From: Candidatus Doudnabacteria bacterium
Lineage (GTDB): Bacteria; Patescibacteriota; Doudnabacteria; UBA920
Assembly (NCBI GenBank): GCA_023245915.1
Contig: JAHFJK010000002.1
Location: 1-29,923 of the forward strand
DNA length: 29,923 bases
Direction of reading: 5' to 3'
A model generated the notes under the pieces. The model saw only the letters and a program-made list of their open reading frames with translations, made no database searches and was not told the origin of the DNA. A program made the translations under genes and the position numbers. Below are positions 4,934 through 18,833 of the stretch, in pieces (within the stretch, counting starts at the first letter, position 1; the number at the start of each line of letters is the position of its first letter).

Positions 4934-5974
4934 ATGATTCAATCAGGCAACGAAAACCTTGCTCCGCTTAAGACCGAAGCGCTGGATGAGGAAGAAATAA
5001 TAATTGAACAGACTTTACGGCCGCAGACGCTTTTGGAATACATTGGCCAGACGGGCGTAAAAAACAATCTCAAGATAATCATCGAAGCCGCAAAAAAACG
5101 CGGCGAGGTCTTGGAGCATTTGCTGTTTTACGGACCGCCGGGTTTGGGCAAAACCACCTTGGCATTTATTGTTGCCAAGGAAATGGGCAGCAACATTAAA
5201 GTCACATCGGGACCCGCGATTGAGAGGGCCGGCGACCTGGCTTCTTTGCTAACCAACTTAAGCGAAGGTGACGTTTTATTTATAGATGAAATTCATCGTT
5301 TGAATAAGGCGGTAGAAGAAGTTTTGTATCCTGCCATGGAAGACCATGTGCTGGATATTATTTTAGGCAAAGGCCCGGGCGCGCGCAGCATTAGAATGGA
5401 GCTGCCAAAGTTTACCCTAATAGGAGCCACAACCAGAATTGGGATGATTTCTTCTCCGCTACGCGACCGTTTTGGCGCCACTTACCGGCTGGAATATTAT
5501 CCGGAAGAAGATTTGCAAATTATTATCAACCGCAACAGCAAAGTTTTAAAAGCCAATGTTGACAAAACTGCCTCCGGAGAGCTTTCCAAACGCAGCCGGT
5601 TTACCCCCCGCATCGCGAATCGATTATTAAAAAGAGTCCGGGATTTTGCCCAGGTCCATGGCCATGATACAATTAATCAAGATATTGCTAAAAAGGCTTT
5701 ACAGCTGTTGGAAATTGACGCGCTTGGCCTTGATAAAAATGACCGACGAATTTTGGAAACCTTAATTAATAAATTTTCCGGCGGCCCAGTGGGGCTTAAC
5801 ACTTTAGCCGCAGCTACTGGTGAAGAAGAAGACACTATTACTGACATTCACGAACCATTTTTAATCCGCTTAGGTCTGTTAGCCAAAACCCCTAAAGGAC
5901 GAGTGGCAACCGAAGCTGCGTATAAACATTTGGATATTGCCCCGCCAAGCTTGGCACAAAAAACCCTGTTGTAA
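4934..5974 (+). CDS. ruvB: Holliday junction branch migration helicase
   Basis: [43 protein letters not shown]. Confidence 0.97.
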
Positions 5975-14417: not shown

Positions 14418-14500
14418 ATTACTGATGCACACGGATTAGTGCTTAGAGAAAAGAGAAAAGCGTTCTATCCTATTCTCTTGTCTCTAATTTCTAATCACTA
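14399..14500. repeat. Composite periodic repeat at the yidC-jag junction
   Basis: CTGATG(G/C)ACACGGAT twice (14401-14415, 14422-14436), then TAGTGCTTAGAG...CTCTAA...ATCACTA inverted arms. Confidence 0.55.
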
Positions 14501-14504
14501 GCGC

Positions 14505-15017
14505 ATGACTGACTATAATAAGATTGAAAAGGTAAAACAAATAATAAATGAAATTTTACAACATGCGGGCATTTCAGGCAGCGTGGAATTTGAAGAAAGC
14601 CTTACTAAGGGCCTGGTTTTTAATATTGCTTCGCCCGATTCTTATCTTTTAATAGGCAGACAGGGCGGCACTTTGCATGCTCTGCAGATTTTGGTGCAGG
14701 CCTTGGCCGCTAAACATTTGCAATCGCAAGAACCATTTTGGTTTAGTTTGGATGTGGATGATTACAAAAGAAAACGCGAATGGTTTTTAAAAGAAACAGC
14801 CAAGGCAGCAGTAGAAAAATTAAAAATGACCGGCCGCGCACAAGCGCTTGAGCCCATGCCGAATTACGAACGCCGCCTAGTCCACGCCTACCTTCAGGAA
14901 CATCACCCGGAAGTGGAAAGCTCAAGTATAGATTACGATCCTTACAGGAGAGTGGTTATAAAGTTAAAAAGGGAGATATCTGTTTATAGATCTTACCTTT
15001 CCAACCCCTCACAGTGA
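14505..15017 (+). CDS. jag: Jag/KhpB (KH + R3H) RNA-binding protein
   Basis: LIGRQGGTLHALQ KH motif, LDVDDY, PMPNYERRLVH R3H motif; downstream of yidC. Confidence 0.88.
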   Translation: MTDYNKIEKVKQIINEILQHAGISGSVEFEESLTKGLVFNIASPDSYLLIGRQGGTLHALQILVQALAAKHLQSQEPFWFSLDVDDYKRKREWFLKETAKAAVEKLKMTGRAQALEPMPNYERRLVHAYLQEHHPEVESSSIDYDPYRRVVIKLKREISVYRSYLSNPSQ

Positions 15018-15026
15018 GGGGGTTTT
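15003..15026 (+). terminator. Terminator at the end of the rpmH-jag operon
   Basis: CCCCTCA-CAG-TGAGGGG followed by GTTTT. Confidence 0.6.
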
Positions 15027-15078
15027 ATAATGAAACGACAAATCAATAGGGATTGTTAAAAATGCCTTAAGGAATAAT

Positions 15079-15867
15079 TTATTTAATTTTTTTTCCCTGC
15101 TCCCACGCCAGTTCAAAAATTATTTTTAAAGAATTGGCAAAGGACGAATTTTTAATTTCAAAAGCTGTATTCTCACCAGGTTTAACGAGCACACCCATGA
15201 CTATGTCATCGTAAATATTTACTTCAGCTGCCGGCAGAAAAGAAAATTTTTCATTTAACCATCTATACTCCTGATATTTTTGGCTATCGGGATTGTTTTT
15301 ATAGTTGTAATTAAAAAAATGCTCGCCTTTTTCGTTTTTGACCACAAGGGAACGTTCTTTAATTTTTAATTTTGTTCTTTCCTTAACATACTCTATTCCC
15401 ATTTCATCAAATTCGGGCAAATAAACACTGAAGTCAATTATAGAATAAATGGTGGACTTGGCCTCCAGAGTATGCCAATAAATATTTTTGATTCCGTCTC
15501 TCCCCTCAAAAAATTTTATGACCGGCTTATTTTCTTTTTTATAAAGATTTTGCAAATCCGGTAATACTTCGCTTATGTCTGTCAGGCGTCTTTCGGCCTG
15601 GTTTTTTTTGTTTTCTAAGTATCGCCTTAATCGGGACGGCGGTTCGGCAACGTATCTCTGCTTTTTGCTTCCAACAGTCGTTCGGTTAATTAGGCCATAT
15701 AAAGCCAGCCTCTCCAAAACATCATAACCAGTAGTTCTATTGAGCTGTGCGGATTTGCTTATTTCGCTCACTGTTCCCTGCCCCAATTCTAATATAGCCA
15801 GATAAACTTTGGTTTCGTTTGGTTGCAATCCCAAAGATTGTAGATTTTCTGATATTTTATAATCCAT
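15079..15867 (-). CDS. TrmB-family wHTH transcriptional regulator (copy 1)
   Basis: LGLQPNETKVYLAIL...RTT-YDVLERL N-terminal HTH; EG--GIKNIY linker; C-terminal effector-like domain. Confidence 0.85.
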   Translation of the reverse strand: MDYKISENLQSLGLQPNETKVYLAILELGQGTVSEISKSAQLNRTTGYDVLERLALYGLINRTTVGSKKQRYVAEPPSRLRRYLENKKNQAERRLTDISEVLPDLQNLYKKENKPVIKFFEGRDGIKNIYWHTLEAKSTIYSIIDFSVYLPEFDEMGIEYVKERTKLKIKERSLVVKNEKGEHFFNYNYKNNPDSQKYQEYRWLNEKFSFLPAAEVNIYDDIVMGVLVKPGENTAFEIKNSSFANSLKIIFELAWEQGKKIK

Positions 15868-15943
15868 TCAATAAATAAAGTGTCAAATTATTCCGACAAA
15901 AATTAATTTTAAATAATAATAAGCTTTAAATAAAGCTAATTTT

Positions 15944-15995
15944 ATTATATCAAATGATGAAACTTATTGTCAATTTTATAAATTTAGACTATATT
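15944..15995. promoter_or_regulatory. Back-to-back promoters with overlapping -35 elements
   Basis: Minus: TTGACA (15973-15968), 18 bp, TATAAT (15949-15944). Plus: TTGTCA (15967-15972), 17 bp, TATATT (15990-15995). Confidence 0.65.
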
Positions 15996-16044
15996 TCCGA
16001 GTTAAAACAAAAAACCCGGCGGGGATACGCATAAAGGGGGATAG

Positions 16045-16776
16045 ATGCAAGTCTTTCAGGCAAGCAATCGAAGAGGCTCTCGCATGAGAAGAGCCCTTAA
16101 TTATTTAGGTCAGTTGCGGATTTATTCGCTGGTTGATCTGATACTCATGCTACGGGCAGTCTCGCAATTCTCCAAGCCATTTTTGGGAGCAGTATTTTTG
16201 TGGATAGGGTTTCTGGCATTTTTGGAATCCATCCACAAAGACAAAGGCCGCGAGCCAGTGAATCAGACATTCGCTTGGCTAGTCTGGCTTCAGGCTTGCA
16301 TCTTCTTGGGAGACAGTAGCGAGATAATACCTTTATACATTGTTTTCTCTATACTTTATTCTTTTAAGAAGCGCTGGTACTGGGCTAGGTTGTCCCCATT
16401 GTTGAGAGGTTTGCAGACTATAGCAATCGTGGTTCTTGTTTCCCCTTCGGAAATAAAATGGTATTGGCTTGCAGCCACTGCACTTTTAATTGCCATCCGA
16501 AATTTTTGGGGAGATGCACGCGACATTGTGCAGGATGAGAAAGAGGGGATAAAAACCTGGCCTATTTACTTTGAGATGCAGCAGCGTCCCCTAGCTCACT
16601 TATTTTGCACATTAGGCACTACGGCCGCGTGGTGGGCCTATGCCGGCGACCTGTCGCTAAAGTGGCTGCTACTTGTCTGGGTTGTCGAGGCTTCAACCTA
16701 TTTGCTTACTCCCAGACAATCAAACAACAAAACAGCTCAAGGTTTGAGCAAAATCCTTCATATTGTATGGAGGTAG
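16045..16776 (+). CDS. Polytopic membrane protein, divergent UbiA prenyltransferase-like
   Basis: Multiple TM helices; GDARDIVQDEKEGIKTWP matches the second UbiA Asp-rich motif; SD-like AAAGGGGG upstream. Confidence 0.6.
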   Translation: MQVFQASNRRGSRMRRALNYLGQLRIYSLVDLILMLRAVSQFSKPFLGAVFLWIGFLAFLESIHKDKGREPVNQTFAWLVWLQACIFLGDSSEIIPLYIVFSILYSFKKRWYWARLSPLLRGLQTIAIVVLVSPSEIKWYWLAATALLIAIRNFWGDARDIVQDEKEGIKTWPIYFEMQQRPLAHLFCTLGTTAAWWAYAGDLSLKWLLLVWVVEASTYLLTPRQSNNKTAQGLSKILHIVWR

Positions 16777-16804
16777 GCGGAACGCTTCGTGCGGACCGCC
16801 TTTT
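16775..16804 (+). terminator. Terminator after the UbiA-like gene
   Basis: AGGCGG...CCGCCT stem with an inner CGC/GCG stem, then TTT. Confidence 0.55.
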
Positions 16805-16807
16805 CGT

Positions 16808-16872
16808 TTATATGGCTAGTGACAGAACCATCCAAAACACCACCGTAAGCTTGTTTTTTAAAAATTGGGTTG
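16808..16872 (-). repeat. Displaced, diverged copy of the 3' end of the O-antigen ligase gene
   Basis: Translates as ...KNKLTVVFWMVLSLAI* versus ...KNDLAMVFWMVLSLSI* at 17559-17622; 17-bp identical core at 16826-16842 and 17577-17593. Confidence 0.85.
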
Positions 16873-16887
16873 CGTTAGGCTGGCTGG

Positions 16888-16916
16888 TTGACGCCGGACG
16901 ATTTTTAAATTATAAT
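16888..16916 (+). promoter_or_regulatory. Sigma70-type promoter of the TA operon
   Basis: TTGACG-17 bp-TATAAT. Confidence 0.75.
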
Positions 16917-16946
16917 TGCATCAGAGAAATTAAAATTTTTTGGATA

Positions 16947-17201
16947 ATGCTAAAACTATCTCTCAACAAATACATTATTGCCGACCCGGCAATTTGTCAT
17001 GGAAAACCGACCTTTAAAGGTACACGCATTATGGTTTGGCAGGTTTTAGAAATGCTTTCAGCCGGAGAAAGCGTTAAAGGTATCATTAGCGCTTTTCCCA
17101 GCTTAAAGATTGTCCATATACGCGCCGCTTTGGAATATGCCAGCAGTTTAACCAGACAAAATTATGTTATCGTCAACACGGCTGACCCGGTTCTTGCTTG
17201 A
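16947..17201 (+). CDS. DUF433 family antitoxin (VapB45-like)
   Basis: DPAICHGKPTFKGTRIMV--VLEML--G-S---I---FPSL----IRAALEYA; ATG at 16947, 84 aa. Confidence 0.88.
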   Translation: MLKLSLNKYIIADPAICHGKPTFKGTRIMVWQVLEMLSAGESVKGIISAFPSLKIVHIRAALEYASSLTRQNYVIVNTADPVLA

Positions 17202-17532
17202 TGAAAATGTTCGCGCGGAACTGGAAAAGTTTTTACGGCGACGCAGATTAAATCTGCGGTTGGCAGTTAAGGGATCATCCGATCAATTTTTAGCGCGTGT
17301 TTCAAAGAGAGAAAAGCGGGTTTTTGTAACAAATGATACAGATTTTACAATACTGCCCGCGGACAAAATTTTTTCAGTAATCTGGCTGAGACTGCCGCAA
17401 AATAATCCTGACTTGCTCATTGTGTCTTTTGAAAAACTCCTTATGGAATGTAAAAATTTCCAGAGTCGGATTATTATTCTTGAACCTTGGGGTTGGTCAA
17501 GCTTGCCGTTGCCAAAAGAAACACAAATATAA
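17164..17532 (+). CDS. DUF5615 PIN-like toxin (VapC45-like)
   Basis: FLLDENV, SD--L, RVFVTNDTDF, VIWLR; overlaps the DUF433 gene. Confidence 0.85.
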   Translation: MLSSTRLTRFLLDENVRAELEKFLRRRRLNLRLAVKGSSDQFLARVSKREKRVFVTNDTDFTILPADKIFSVIWLRLPQNNPDLLIVSFEKLLMECKNFQSRIIILEPWGWSSLPLPKETQI

Positions 17533-17560
17533 AAAACTGTCACAGTAAAGACAGTTTTTT
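17531..17560. terminator. Bidirectional terminator between toxin and ligase genes
   Basis: AAAAAACTGTC-8nt-GACAGTTTTTT, 11-bp perfect stem. Confidence 0.7.
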
Positions 17561-18833
17561 ATATTGATAACGACAAAACCATCCAAAACACCATTGCCAA
17601 ATCGTTTTTAAAATAGGGGTTGTCAATAAGGCCTTGGAAGAGGAGGCAGATGAGGAAGAGGGCGACAGCCAACTTTATGTCATTCCCGCGAAAGCCTGCC
17701 TTGCCGGCAGGCAGGCGGGAATCTAGATTGTGGATTCCGGCTAGCCCTTCGCCGCTTCGCGGCTCCGTGGCTGCCGGAATGACACTGGGGCGGAGGCCGC
17801 GATAAATATAAATTGATATTAATCCCAAGAAACTAATTAGACCTAACAAGCCCGTTTCTACCCAAAAATTTAAAAATACGTTATGCGGAAAGTTGTGAGT
17901 ATCTAAATTGGGGTCAGTGTTTAGCTTTTGCCAGTTATTACCAAAGCCTGTTAAGCCTAATCCAAAAATTGGCGACTCTTTTATAGCTTTAACGCCTGTG
18001 TGCCAAAGCGAAAGGCGAGAGATGGCAGATTTTTCCCCATAAAAGGGAAGGACAAAGCGCCAGCGAAGATTGGGGACGGAAATTATAACAATAACCATAA
18101 CAATAACGGCGGCGAAGATCAGTTTGCGGATTTTGGCTTCAGCAGCCACAATCAAATAAATTCCAATAGCTGCGGCCAGCCCTAAGAAACCGGCGCGGGA
18201 AAAGGAAAGGAGCAGGCCGAGCGCGCCTAAGGCCCAGGCGAGGGATTTTAGATTTAAGATTTTAGATTTAAGATTTTCAAAAACGTCGGGAATCAATAAT
18301 GCCAAAAGCGGGGCTGACCAAAGGGCGTAAAAATTCGGATGTGCAAAAAAACTCAACGCGCGTTTTGGCTCGTTGGCATTGCCCCAATAAATTTGCGGAA
18401 GGCCGAGTAAAGTGAAATATTGCAGTATTGCGTAAAGACCAGCTAAAGCTAGTAAGTAGTAAGTAGTAAGTAGTAAGTAACTTTTGCTTTGCGGATGTTG
18501 CTCAAAGAAAAATTTGCCAATGAAAAAAATCGAAATCGGTTGAAGAAACAAAACAATAAATTGTCCCAACTTTGCCTGGTCGAAGCCTTTGATGAATAAA
18601 CTGATTATTCCAGAGATGAAGAAAAAGCCGACTGTTAGTAAAATCTCTTTGCGAATATTTTTGACGGCCGTCAAAAATATTCGCGCCCGTTTTTTTGCGA
18701 TGACATTAACCACAAATGCTATCCAAACCAAAAATACCCACATCATCAGAATATTTCTGGGAAGAAAACCCAAGTTAAACCGAATGGCATAAGCCGGAGC
18801 CAGAATAAAAGTTATAATAAGCAGGTAAAGCAT
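17559..18833 (-). CDS. O-antigen ligase-like (WaaL/Wzy_C) membrane protein with in-frame repeat insertions
   Basis: ~12 TM segments, RA--FF-HPN, LSFSRAG, R--LW--G, P-FG-G, PHN-FL-FW-E-GL-G, F------ND motifs. Confidence 0.88.
   Translation of the reverse strand: MLYLLIITFILAPAYAIRFNLGFLPRNILMMWVFLVWIAFVVNVIAKKRARIFLTAVKNIRKEILLTVGFFFISGIISLFIKGFDQAKLGQFIVLFLQPISIFFIGKFFFEQHPQSKSYLLLTTYYLLALAGLYAILQYFTLLGLPQIYWGNANEPKRALSFFAHPNFYALWSAPLLALLIPDVFENLKSKILNLKSLAWALGALGLLLSFSRAGFLGLAAAIGIYLIVAAEAKIRKLIFAAVIVMVIVIISVPNLRWRFVLPFYGEKSAISRLSLWHTGVKAIKESPIFGLGLTGFGNNWQKLNTDPNLDTHNFPHNVFLNFWVETGLLGLISFLGLISIYIYRGLRPSVIPAATEPRSGEGLAGIHNLDSRLPAGKAGFRGNDIKLAVALFLICLLFQGLIDNPYFKNDLAMVFWMVLSLSI
17678..17784. 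repeat. CGTC-type REP/RPE-like palindromic element inserted in frame in the ligase gene
   Basis: Terminal IR TGTCATTCC/GGAATGACA; translates as VIPAATEPRSGEGLAGIHNLDSRLPAGKAGFRGND. Confidence 0.85.
18245..18279. repeat. Heptamer-periodic tract inside the ligase CDS
   Basis: ATTTTAG ATTTAAG ATTTTAG ATTTAAG ATTTTCA; encodes ENLKSKILNLKS. Confidence 0.8.
18450..18479. repeat. (TAGTAAG)4 simple sequence repeat inside the ligase CDS
   Basis: Four perfect heptamers at 18450-18477; encodes YLLLTTYYL. Confidence 0.9.

Follow-up and report, generated by a model that had tools for sequence, protein, structure and literature searches.

The window analyzed here, a stretch of 29,923 nucleotides, belongs to the 1.06-Mb genome (G000) of an uncultured groundwater bacterium. 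The locus of interest (Table 1) consists of an intact ligase gene and a gene for a UbiA-like membrane protein, which is the ligase's ancestral convergent neighbour, with a 685-bp insert between them that holds a promoter, an antitoxin-like DUF433 gene, a PIN-like DUF5615 toxin gene and a hairpin. These two genes overlap by 38 nt and are the only genes in the insert; no mobility gene was found in it, and no recombinase gene in it or its flanks. The first-pass annotation had described a toxin-antitoxin (TA) pair with its own promoter and terminator and no integrase, lying between two copies of the ligase end, and this description is borne out by the Pfam matches, the TTGACG-17-TATAAT promoter and the 16-bp hairpin, which resembles a bidirectional terminator. 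An integron cassette was also considered: the locus has no integrase, and the GTTAGGC heptamer found at 16874-16880 could have arisen by chance.

Table 1 Features of the ligase locus, with positions in the window
Feature	Position	Strand	Basis
UbiA-like membrane protein gene, left flank of insertion	16045..16776	+	Pfam UbiA weak, E 1.2e-4, below cut-off
UbiA-like terminator: stem-loop GGCGG...CCGCC, then T-rich tract	16776..16809	+	Read from sequence
Orphan ligase 3' end (target duplication copy 1), last 20 codons and stop	16807..16872	-	Alignment, in-frame reading
Sigma-70-like promoter of TA pair, TTGACG, 17-nt spacer, TATAAT	16888..16916	+	11/12 matches
DUF433 (COG2442) antitoxin-like gene, 84 aa	16947..17201	+	Pfam E 1.7e-20
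DUF5615 (reduced PIN, Mut7-C/COG4634-like) toxin-like gene, 122 aa	17164..17532	+	Pfam E 2.2e-9
Perfect 16-bp inverted repeat, 8-nt loop, over toxin-gene stop and ligase stop	17526..17565		
Live ligase 3' end (target duplication copy 2)	17558..17622	-	53/66 identical to single G011 copy
Intact 424-aa Wzy_C gene of the O-antigen ligase/polymerase family	17559..18833	-	Pfam E 6.5e-22

The pair has the predicted make-up of a type II TA system, with a DNA-binding partner and a PIN-like nuclease that are kept together across genomes. The DUF433 and DUF5615 genes are paired in 16 of the 16 related loci that were read, and precomputed domains of homologues of the DUF5615 gene are Mut7-C and DUF5615. 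The same arrangement, in which a DUF433 winged-helix gene lies upstream of an overlapping small PIN-like gene and the two are conserved as a unit, is known from PIN-COG2442 (VapBC-type) pairs such as Synechocystis VapBC10 (PMC3834315) and from COG4634/Mut7-C-like PIN toxins with DUF433 partners (PMC5499597), while the putative toxin of the present pair belongs to the reduced DUF5615 kind. Growth arrest and its neutralisation have been demonstrated for a relative within the family only (PMC3834315), and no paper in the literature searched names both DUF433 and DUF5615. DUF5615 is found in 0 of 18 genomes of species of the same genus, and for this reason the TA pair is regarded as an acquisition. 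Homologues of the toxin gene recovered by metagenome and genome scans are at most 58% identical, come from other CPR and DPANN lineages and never lie by a ligase; relatives at 67-73% identity do adjoin one.

The end of the ligase gene is present twice, once as the live end and once as an orphan on the far side of the cassette. The two are identical at 50 of 66 positions in a global alignment, and they contain a direct repeat of 56 nt at 77% identity (16807-16862 versus 17558-17613) that is continued by 16855-16872 versus 17605-17622. A 17-nt exact core, AACCATCCAAAACACCA, occurs twice in the window, where shuffles expect 0.01 occurrences. Read in frame, the orphan gives TQFLKNKLTVVFWMVLSLAI and a stop and the live ligase gives NPYFKNDLAMVFWMVLSLSI and a stop, in agreement with the earlier statement that the orphan still encodes the ligase C-terminus. 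The five mismatches counted in that annotation hold for the terminal 35 nt and do not describe what lies beyond, since the part distal to the stop is far more diverged, with about 11-12 mismatches in 30. Both parts of the repeat beat shuffled sequences (0/2000 for the stop-proximal 35 nt and 6/2000 for the distal part), and no further copy exists elsewhere in the genome. The orphan has neither a start codon nor a gene, and no tRNA overlaps the locus. A small translated ORF on the orphan was also considered; following a stop, 34 codons of that frame are open, and it was judged to be no gene.

Is the duplication a product of chance, of assembly, or of the decay of a tandem copy of the whole ligase gene? 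Explanations of this kind can be dismissed almost entirely. Chance and artefact are excluded by the shuffle tests and by an independent assembly, in which a Logan contig of 3931 nt (depth 6.9) spans 14500-17589 with no differences and so includes the orphan, the TA pair and the hairpin and reaches 31 nt into the live ligase end. A tandem origin might be suggested by G010 and G021, which have two ligase homologues each, but in both genomes the two homologues are on separate contigs and each is flanked by a Jag-YidC pair of its own. Moreover, no relative has tandem ligases at this locus, and the orphan's position beside the UbiA-like terminator is the one native to a ligase end. The first-pass annotation had itself raised both a whole-gene duplication and an assembly artefact, and neither survives these comparisons.

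The state before insertion is represented in the sister species G011, which groups with G000 and G012 and is a different species of the same genus rather than a conspecific. There, a UbiA-like homologue (62% identical) directly adjoins the live ligase stop, and the single live ligase end stands at the orphan's place; the UbiA-like terminator abuts the ligase stop in G011 and the orphan's stop codon here. The G011 end is identical to the orphan at 49 of 67 positions and to the live end at 53 of 66. This arrangement of UbiA-like gene, terminator and single ligase end is the empty allele whose existence in relatives had been proposed as a check, and it upholds the view that something was inserted at the ligase 3' end and that the two copies are the footprint of this event, one of them a displaced copy of that end. 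Another contig, whose ligase is 99% identical, is arranged like the window and is hence uninformative.

Ligase orthologues in 41 of 41 relatives conserve the gene order PBP1A, ligase, variable gap, Jag and YidC. Across 22 loci the gap ranges from -16 to 3118 nt and the cargo differs. In two other species, G012 and G017, orphan ligase ends surround unrelated cargo, which answers the earlier suggestion to look in other genomes for cargo here; the cargo ORF of G012 is unique in the family, with no donor found. The three orphans, of G000, G012 and G017, measure about 66, 130 and 90 nt and have different exact cores, which code for VFWMV, PYFKNDL and QGQVDN. The TA pair also adjoins the ligase stop in non-sister lineages, namely in L052 and in the P0001 contigs. 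The L052 cassette keeps its promoter and has no orphan, its similarity to the window starting exactly at the -35 box, and an apparent 36-nt remnant of the UbiA-like 3' end lies by the cassette promoter (1/500 shuffles). Dating by dS against L052 is saturated for most genes.

The same scar recurs across the genome. About 20 small inserts of 0.5-2.4 kb are flanked by direct repeats of 40-145 nt that derive from their own local target, and a genome-wide scan for unique local repeat pairs (40-200 nt, 0.3-4 kb apart) yielded 28 direct versus 2 inverted pairs. The duplicated target is the 3' end of a gene in nine cases, a 5' end in three or four and intergenic DNA in the rest, and the ends of IF-2, MurA, GatA, UvrA and DnaJ are among the targets; no tRNA gene is among the targets of these inserts. 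Empty single-copy sites are seen in relatives for IF-2 (12/12), UvrA (10/10) and GatA (9/10). At least 8 of the approximately 20 inserts carry TA modules. The Pfam matches of the cargo are DUF433+DUF5615 (twice), PIN_3+MazE, PemK, HTH_3+Gp49, ParE, HepT+MNT, a weak BrnT+CopG, NYN (three times) and AAA_14/DUF4143 (twice). No integrase lies in or beside the cargo of any of them, and no end motif shared among the loci was found by eye. Repeat identities range from 99% to 76%, as expected if the copies were born alike and then decayed, and the youngest repeats (97-99% identical) are of local sequence and include 5' ends and intergenic DNA. The youngest loci lie at C81 14298-15259, C7 1-2664, C89 2058-3909, C48 1236-2361 and C4 1-802. 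These scars point to a recombinase-free entry of selfish genes into genomes.

One hypothesis is site-specific integration of the cassette, in which a recombinase would have acted in trans and AACCATCCAAAACACCA would be the att core, and the 17-nt exact core inside a more diverged repeat is what such an event might leave. One tyrosine recombinase, the only intact one of the genome, is encoded on contig C37, away from the locus. However, by a rough estimate an exact run of 17 has about a 10% chance of arising within 56 nt at 77% identity, and the core, which encodes the conserved VFWMV, is near-identical in the single-copy ligase ends of relatives; it is no more than conserved coding sequence of the ligase end. 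Different cores are found in G012 and G017, and 20 other loci have unrelated repeats with no common motif and no integrase by any cargo. We therefore consider a recombinase in trans highly improbable. The differing cores and lengths in G000, G012 and G017, together with some 20 other targets, likewise give no support to the idea that the surface-glycan gene, earlier suggested as the attachment site, is dedicated to that role, or that crossover takes place at the 17-nt core. Islands that integrases place in the 3' ends of tRNA or protein genes resemble the present locus in that an intact gene end is supplied or kept and a partial direct repeat is left; in contrast to such islands, the inserts here lack an integrase and a common core, their repeats vary in length, and they measure just 0.5-2.4 kb. 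Neither a recombinase in or next to the element nor an att core common to G000, G012 and G017 was found.

The reading that we favor, and regard as probable, is that the 685-bp TA cassette was inserted at the ligase end with a target duplication of about 66 bp and with no integrase or transposase of its own, the duplication being the work of host repair or replication, followed by homologous transfer. Insertion at the very end of the ligase gene would duplicate about 66 bp of the target, such that one copy would still close the ligase frame and the other would be left without coding function, as an orphan next to the UbiA-like gene, the former neighbour. The duplication may have been made by the host's break-repair or replication machinery, for instance if staggered breaks were filled in, or if synthesis switched template and resumed past the break. 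Selection would be expected to spare only those insertions in which the duplicated stretch holds intergenic DNA or the start or stop of a gene. The cassette and its repeats could then pass between related genomes, probably after DNA uptake, by homologous recombination through the conserved target gene, which would hold related cassettes at the same site across lineages. The transfer step is included because random duplicative insertion alone would not predict recurrence at the same site in non-sister lineages. Observations that run against this reading are the related same-site cassettes in L052 and P0001 (ligase) and in G010 (GatA), and the L052 cassette without an orphan. Mismatches inside several repeats are also strongly one-sided (DnaJ 2 versus 20, GlpX 13 versus 2), which uniform decay does not explain; a bias of mismatches toward the cargo side of orphans is absent (64 versus 68).

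An alternative hypothesis is that the 3' end was displaced by one-sided (homology-facilitated illegitimate) recombination, in which case the orphan would be the resident's or the donor's end and no copy would have been made by insertion. The incoming DNA would be either a ligase end with the cassette or the UbiA-like gene with 66-78 nt of ligase end, joined by homology on one side and illegitimately on the other. Such displacement fits the hypervariable ligase-Jag interval, the adjacency of cassette and ligase stop in other lineages that could act as donors, the L052 remnant as another orphaned gene end, and the greater divergence of the orphan's distal half relative to its proximal half. One-sided recombination has been proposed for rhs, CDI and T6SS effector ends, where it has been used to explain strings of orphaned 3' ends; there, too, a displaced old 3' end lies downstream of new cargo and no recombinase is involved (PMC5361080 and papers cited in it). 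In those systems the new end is a different toxic tip with an immunity partner, whereas here the same conserved housekeeping C-terminus is found twice and no new end of other function with a cognate partner was found; 5' ends and intergenic DNA are also duplicated here. The terminal 24 nt of the orphan match its own live copy at 19 of 24 positions and 23 other ligase ends at 18 of 24 at most, which is unexpected for a distant donor. Against displacement also stand the young, local, nearly identical repeats at other loci, and, by our own reasoning, integration of single-stranded donor DNA should normally delete recipient DNA rather than duplicate it. We consider displacement a rather improbable account of the locus, and a less probable one than duplicative insertion.

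A further possibility is that recombination between the repeats frees a circle, consisting of cargo and one repeat, and that a RecA-type single crossover into the same gene end recreates the repeats. This would account for same-site recurrence in non-sister lineages, namely at the ligase in G000, L052 and P0001 and at GatA in G000 and G010, where both GatA inserts have an orphan of their own (in G010, PemK stands behind GatA). Few parts of the target genes are as conserved as the ends concerned, contigs C4, C7 and C81 end exactly at young repeats, and a similar life cycle has been proposed for restriction-modification units (PMC2853133). However, no circle or empty-site joint across the islet was seen in the Logan contigs of two DNA runs, an assembly type that drops rare forms, and the excision junctions that the first-pass annotation had suggested looking for did not appear there. 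An exact-match search for the orphan junction in a collection of genome contigs gave no match, and a metatranscriptome run yielded no contig over the islet region. For RecA, stretches of only 17-20 exactly matching nucleotides are short, L052 has no second repeat, and the origin of the first target copy on the cassette is left unexplained. Homing of a circle is, for these reasons, distinctly unlikely here. The proposition that TA and other small selfish cassettes, each with one copy of the long target repeat, are recombinase-free homing units that loop out between repeats and, after transfer, use homology to re-enter the same conserved gene end in related genomes, and that this CPR genome has collected about 20 of them at housekeeping-gene ends, is doubtful.

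Duplicative insertion, the favored reading, matches a known class, except that the host is a CPR bacterium and TA genes are the cargo. This class, insertion with long target duplication, has been described for units of restriction-modification genes (Nobusato et al. 2000, cited in Furuta, Abe and Kobayashi 2010, PMC2853133), and the published cases combine repeats over 30 bp, a single copy in the empty site and no mobility genes, mostly in naturally competent species. The shared features are an addiction-type selfish unit of about 1 kb, direct repeats over 30 bp with a single copy in a relative's empty site, repeats unique to the locus and often over a gene 3' end, and the lack of a transposase or integrase, and the restriction-modification hosts are mostly able to take up DNA. 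The present repeats exceed 30 bp, are single copy in the empty site of another species (G011), and are accompanied by no mobility gene, tRNA or multicopy element. The cargo differs, being type II TA pairs and small nuclease or ATPase genes here and restriction-modification genes in the published units, as does the host, a CPR (Doudnabacteria-like) bacterium in whose 1.06 Mb such loci are dense, at about 20. For the published units, breakage of DNA by the cargo itself had been put forward as the cause, which is inapplicable to RNase-type toxins. Since the toxins here are of that type, cutting by the cargo is excluded as the cause, and host repair or recombination is indicated.

Minimal mobile elements are defined by conserved flanking genes that hold different small cassettes in different genomes, and a duplicated target is no part of the definition. 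Likewise, the ligase and Jag genes here flank differing cassettes, presumably swapped through flanking homology after DNA uptake, and the same flanking genes with different cassettes are found across relatives. Such elements were described for Neisseria (Saunders and Snyder 2002, cited in PMC1538595).

An old question touched by these observations is how TA modules move without mobility genes of their own. One small genome presents about 20 events of graded age, with repeat identities from 99% to 76%, and this graded series, together with the recurrence of some related cassettes at the same gene ends in other lineages, provides a natural test set for junctions, empty sites and circular forms. 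Annotators of CPR genomes should read a short orphan gene end next to a housekeeping gene as an insertion scar rather than as a pseudogene of a paralogue. Strings of orphans occur on contigs C48 and C7.

The pair of DUF433 (antitoxin-like) and DUF5615 (toxin-like) genes lies between the live 3' end of an O-antigen ligase gene and a decayed copy of that end, here called the orphan. The first-pass annotation had described this duplication, and it is confirmed: the repeat comprises 56 nt at 77% identity plus an 18-nt extension, 50 of 66 positions are identical in a global alignment, and the window contains exactly two copies of its 17-nt core, where 0.01 would be expected. Both halves of the repeat exceed chance when compared with shuffled sequence (0/2000 for the stop-proximal half and 6/2000 for the distal half). 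The orphan keeps 20 codons and the stop in frame and has no start codon; it is not a gene. The target is duplicated, the ligase frame is intact and the insert carries no recombinase; the reading of the structure as an insertion footprint is borne out. In a separate assembly, made from the public run that matches best (a groundwater metagenome that may be the window's own source sample), one contig covers 14500-17589 with 0 differences, and the structure is therefore not an assembly artefact, the objection that the annotation had itself raised.

Features of the window and repeat-flanked inserts at loci outside it
Feature	Stretch	Coordinates	Strand	Content
Wzy_C (O-antigen ligase family) gene	window	17559-18833	minus	424 aa
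DUF433 gene	window	16947-17201	plus	
DUF5615 gene	window	17164-17532	plus	overlapped by DUF433 gene
Live ligase end	window	17558-17622	minus	last 66 nt of ligase gene
Orphan	window	16807-16872	minus	direct-repeat copy of ligase end
Near-consensus promoter	window	16888-16916		
Perfect 16-bp hairpin	window	17526-17565		over both convergent stop codons (DUF5615 gene, ligase)
IF-2 3' end repeat	L079	2626-2671 + 3529-3574		PIN_3+MazE
MurA-like 3' end repeat	L078	1530-1596 + 2334-2400		weak BrnT+CopG
GatA 3' end repeat	L080	2047-2166 + 2862-2976		PemK
UvrA 3' end repeat	L081	2058-2171 + 3795-3909		473-aa unknown
Gene 3' end repeat, three copies	L082	68-202, 1236-1344, 2253-2361		HTH_3+Gp49, then second orphan
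DnaJ 3' end repeat	L083	420-530 + 1893-2003		AAA_14/DUF4143 ATPase
FMN reductase gene start repeat	L124	1-61 + 742-802		second DUF433+DUF5615 pair before gene
glpX gene start repeat	L125	2143-2263 + 2771-2894		ParE + 80-aa ORF before glpX
Gene start repeat inside operon	L126	1757-1796 + 2859-2898		HepT + nucleotidyltransferase between two genes

A 198-aa ORF (16605-17201) extends from the UbiA-like gene's end, through the orphan and promoter, into the DUF433 gene, and in a near-identical contig a gene caller placed a 144-aa 'DUF433' product in this region; the long ORF is an annotation trap. Within the ligase gene, a GC-rich palindromic element (17678-17784) is inserted in frame and supplies residues ~349-381. 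The ligases of many relatives match only over residues 1-348 and 382-423 and thus are without the element, a related piece of which lies on contig C86 of the same genome.

By the names that its homologues bear, the organism falls within Candidatus Doudnabacteria (Patescibacteria/CPR). All 22 related loci read share the order PBP1A, ligase, gap, Jag, YidC. Across species the gap, measured from ligase stop to Jag stop, spans -16 to 3118 nt and differs in gene content. The empty allele that the annotation expected among relatives is present in the related species G011, where TrmB, a UbiA-like gene and a terminator are followed directly by the live ligase stop, colinear with the UbiA-like gene, terminator and orphan of the window. 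Trees of YidC plus Jag and of the ligase cluster the window's genome with G012 and next with G011, both of which are without the toxin-antitoxin pair, and DUF5615 was found in 0/18 same-genus species genomes. Other cargo occupies the same site, as the annotation had also anticipated: orphan ligase ends lie behind unrelated cargo, a 95-aa ORF in G012 (repeat ~130 nt; no relatives of the ORF found in the family) and a 2.3-kb insert with a PIN-like, a TrmB-like and a DUF433 gene in G017 (repeat ~90 nt). The longest exact repeat runs in the window, G012 and G017 encode different parts of the conserved ligase C-terminus; therefore a single att core is not supported, and the proposal that the cassette uses an attachment site is not borne out. 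The rival of end displacement invokes one-sided recombination, which has been proposed at rhs and T6SS loci (PMC5361080); it accords with the hypervariable ligase-Jag locus and with the uneven divergence along the orphan, but less well with the orphan's last 24 nt being nearest the live copy in the same genome (19/24, while 23 other ligase ends reach at most 18/24).

Is the ligase gene special in this respect? Comparison of the last 90 nt of each of 1002 crude ORFs in the window's genome with the 5 kb downstream gave 8 matches in 7 genes versus 3 in the upstream control. When the 1.06-Mb assembly was compared with itself in an unbiased search for unique local repeat pairs (40-200 nt, 0.3-4 kb apart), 28 direct versus 2 inverted pairs emerged, some loci being counted more than once. 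Inspection left ~20 small inserts, all of 0.5-2.4 kb except one of 3.9 kb, between 40-145-nt direct repeats of their own local target; the specificity for a surface-glycan gene that the annotation had suggested is not borne out. Nine repeats lie on gene 3' ends (ligase, IF-2, MurA-like, GatA-like amidase, UvrA, DnaJ, ATP synthase delta and two unnamed), 3-4 on gene 5' ends plus upstream DNA (GlpX, FMN reductase, NYN gene), and the remainder are intergenic. None overlaps a tRNA gene, and inspection of the ~20 loci by eye revealed no motif common to the cargo ends. At the six 3'-end loci L078-L083 the second copy lies 0.7-1.7 kb downstream. By Pfam, the cargo includes pairs (a second DUF433+DUF5615, PIN_3+MazE, HTH_3+Gp49, HepT+nucleotidyltransferase, weak BrnT+CopG), PemK, ParE, three NYN genes, two AAA_14/DUF4143 ATPases, DUF3800, a response-regulator domain, a TrmB-like regulator and several unknowns. 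Relatives have single-copy empty sites at IF-2 (12/12), UvrA (10/10) and GatA (9/10). Copy identities range from 76% to 99%, and the near-identical young repeats fit end displacement poorly. The window's cassette exemplifies a recombinase-free mode of insertion that is found genome-wide.

[quoted passage not shown] In the literature searched, the class is described for restriction-modification genes and merely cited in toxin-antitoxin reviews, whereas here the cargo is toxin-antitoxin genes and the host a CPR bacterium. How might the duplication arise? Insertion driven by the cargo's own DNA cutting cannot hold, because the toxins here are RNase-type. Host repair or replication probably makes the duplication upon capture of foreign DNA, and selection would then retain only events in which the duplicate takes in intergenic DNA, a gene's stop codon, or its start together with the promoter; such a survival filter would explain why, in so compact a genome, scars crowd at the ends of genes. 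The recurrence of related cassettes at the same site, beside the ligase in the window's genome and in the metagenome contigs L052 and P0001 and beside GatA in the window's genome and G010, calls for a second step. Homologous recombination within the conserved target gene could transfer the cassette, or, more novel, a circle carrying one repeat copy could home to the site.

The closest DUF5615 proteins (67-73% identical) are from metagenome contigs; in those with known flanks the pair once more adjoins a ligase stop, in the order Jag, pair, ligase in P0001 and Jag, TrmB, 129-aa ORF, pair, ligase in L052. L052 is no close kin of the window's genome and has no orphan ligase end; divergence is about equal in cassette (73.5% nucleotide identity) and flanks (66-70%), with synonymous sites saturated in most genes. 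Similarity begins exactly at the -35 box, just after a terminator and the letters TTATATA. Just upstream of the promoter in L052, next to the unrelated 129-aa ORF, ~36 nt (5653-5690) resemble the UbiA-like 3' end and the start of its terminator (1/500 shuffles) and seem to be a kept remnant. More distant homologues (at most 58%), in other CPR and DPANN genomes, are invariably paired and never seen beside a ligase. The pair belongs among type II modules of the PIN-COG2442 kind, for which a cyanobacterial relative has been validated (PMC3834315), and likewise to the reduced Mut7-C/COG4634-like PIN group, whose toxicity is predicted (PMC5499597).

Several observations concern individual loci. The ligase of G018 extends 19 codons beyond where ligases usually end (…VFWIVLSLSLSPIHGEMSRVQPSDREVNK), as though its stop codon had been lost to another insertion. 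In G010, contigs C13 and C63 each carry a complete ligase-Jag-YidC locus; the two loci are sisters in the YidC+Jag tree, so G010 possibly represents two strains binned together. Its PemK homologue, 60% identical, also lies behind GatA; the cassettes of these non-sister species (G010, L112 3039-3618; window's genome, L104 3014-3812) each have an orphan GatA end of their own and share a conserved hairpin motif that ends in GGAACGTGG; the window's genome has the motif twice, with the spacer between interrupted by an N run. The youngest repeats (97-99% identical, 61-143 nt) reach contig ends (C81 14298-15259, C7 1-2664, C4 1-802) which may mean that occupied and empty alleles coexist in the sampled population, or that amplification has taken place there. 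Finally, mismatches are crowded into one repeat half at DnaJ (L083, 2 vs 20), GlpX (L125, 13 vs 2), atpH (L128, 0 vs 4) and C7 (L132, 0 vs 4), which uniform decay fails to explain and which suggests gene conversion or a mosaic origin.
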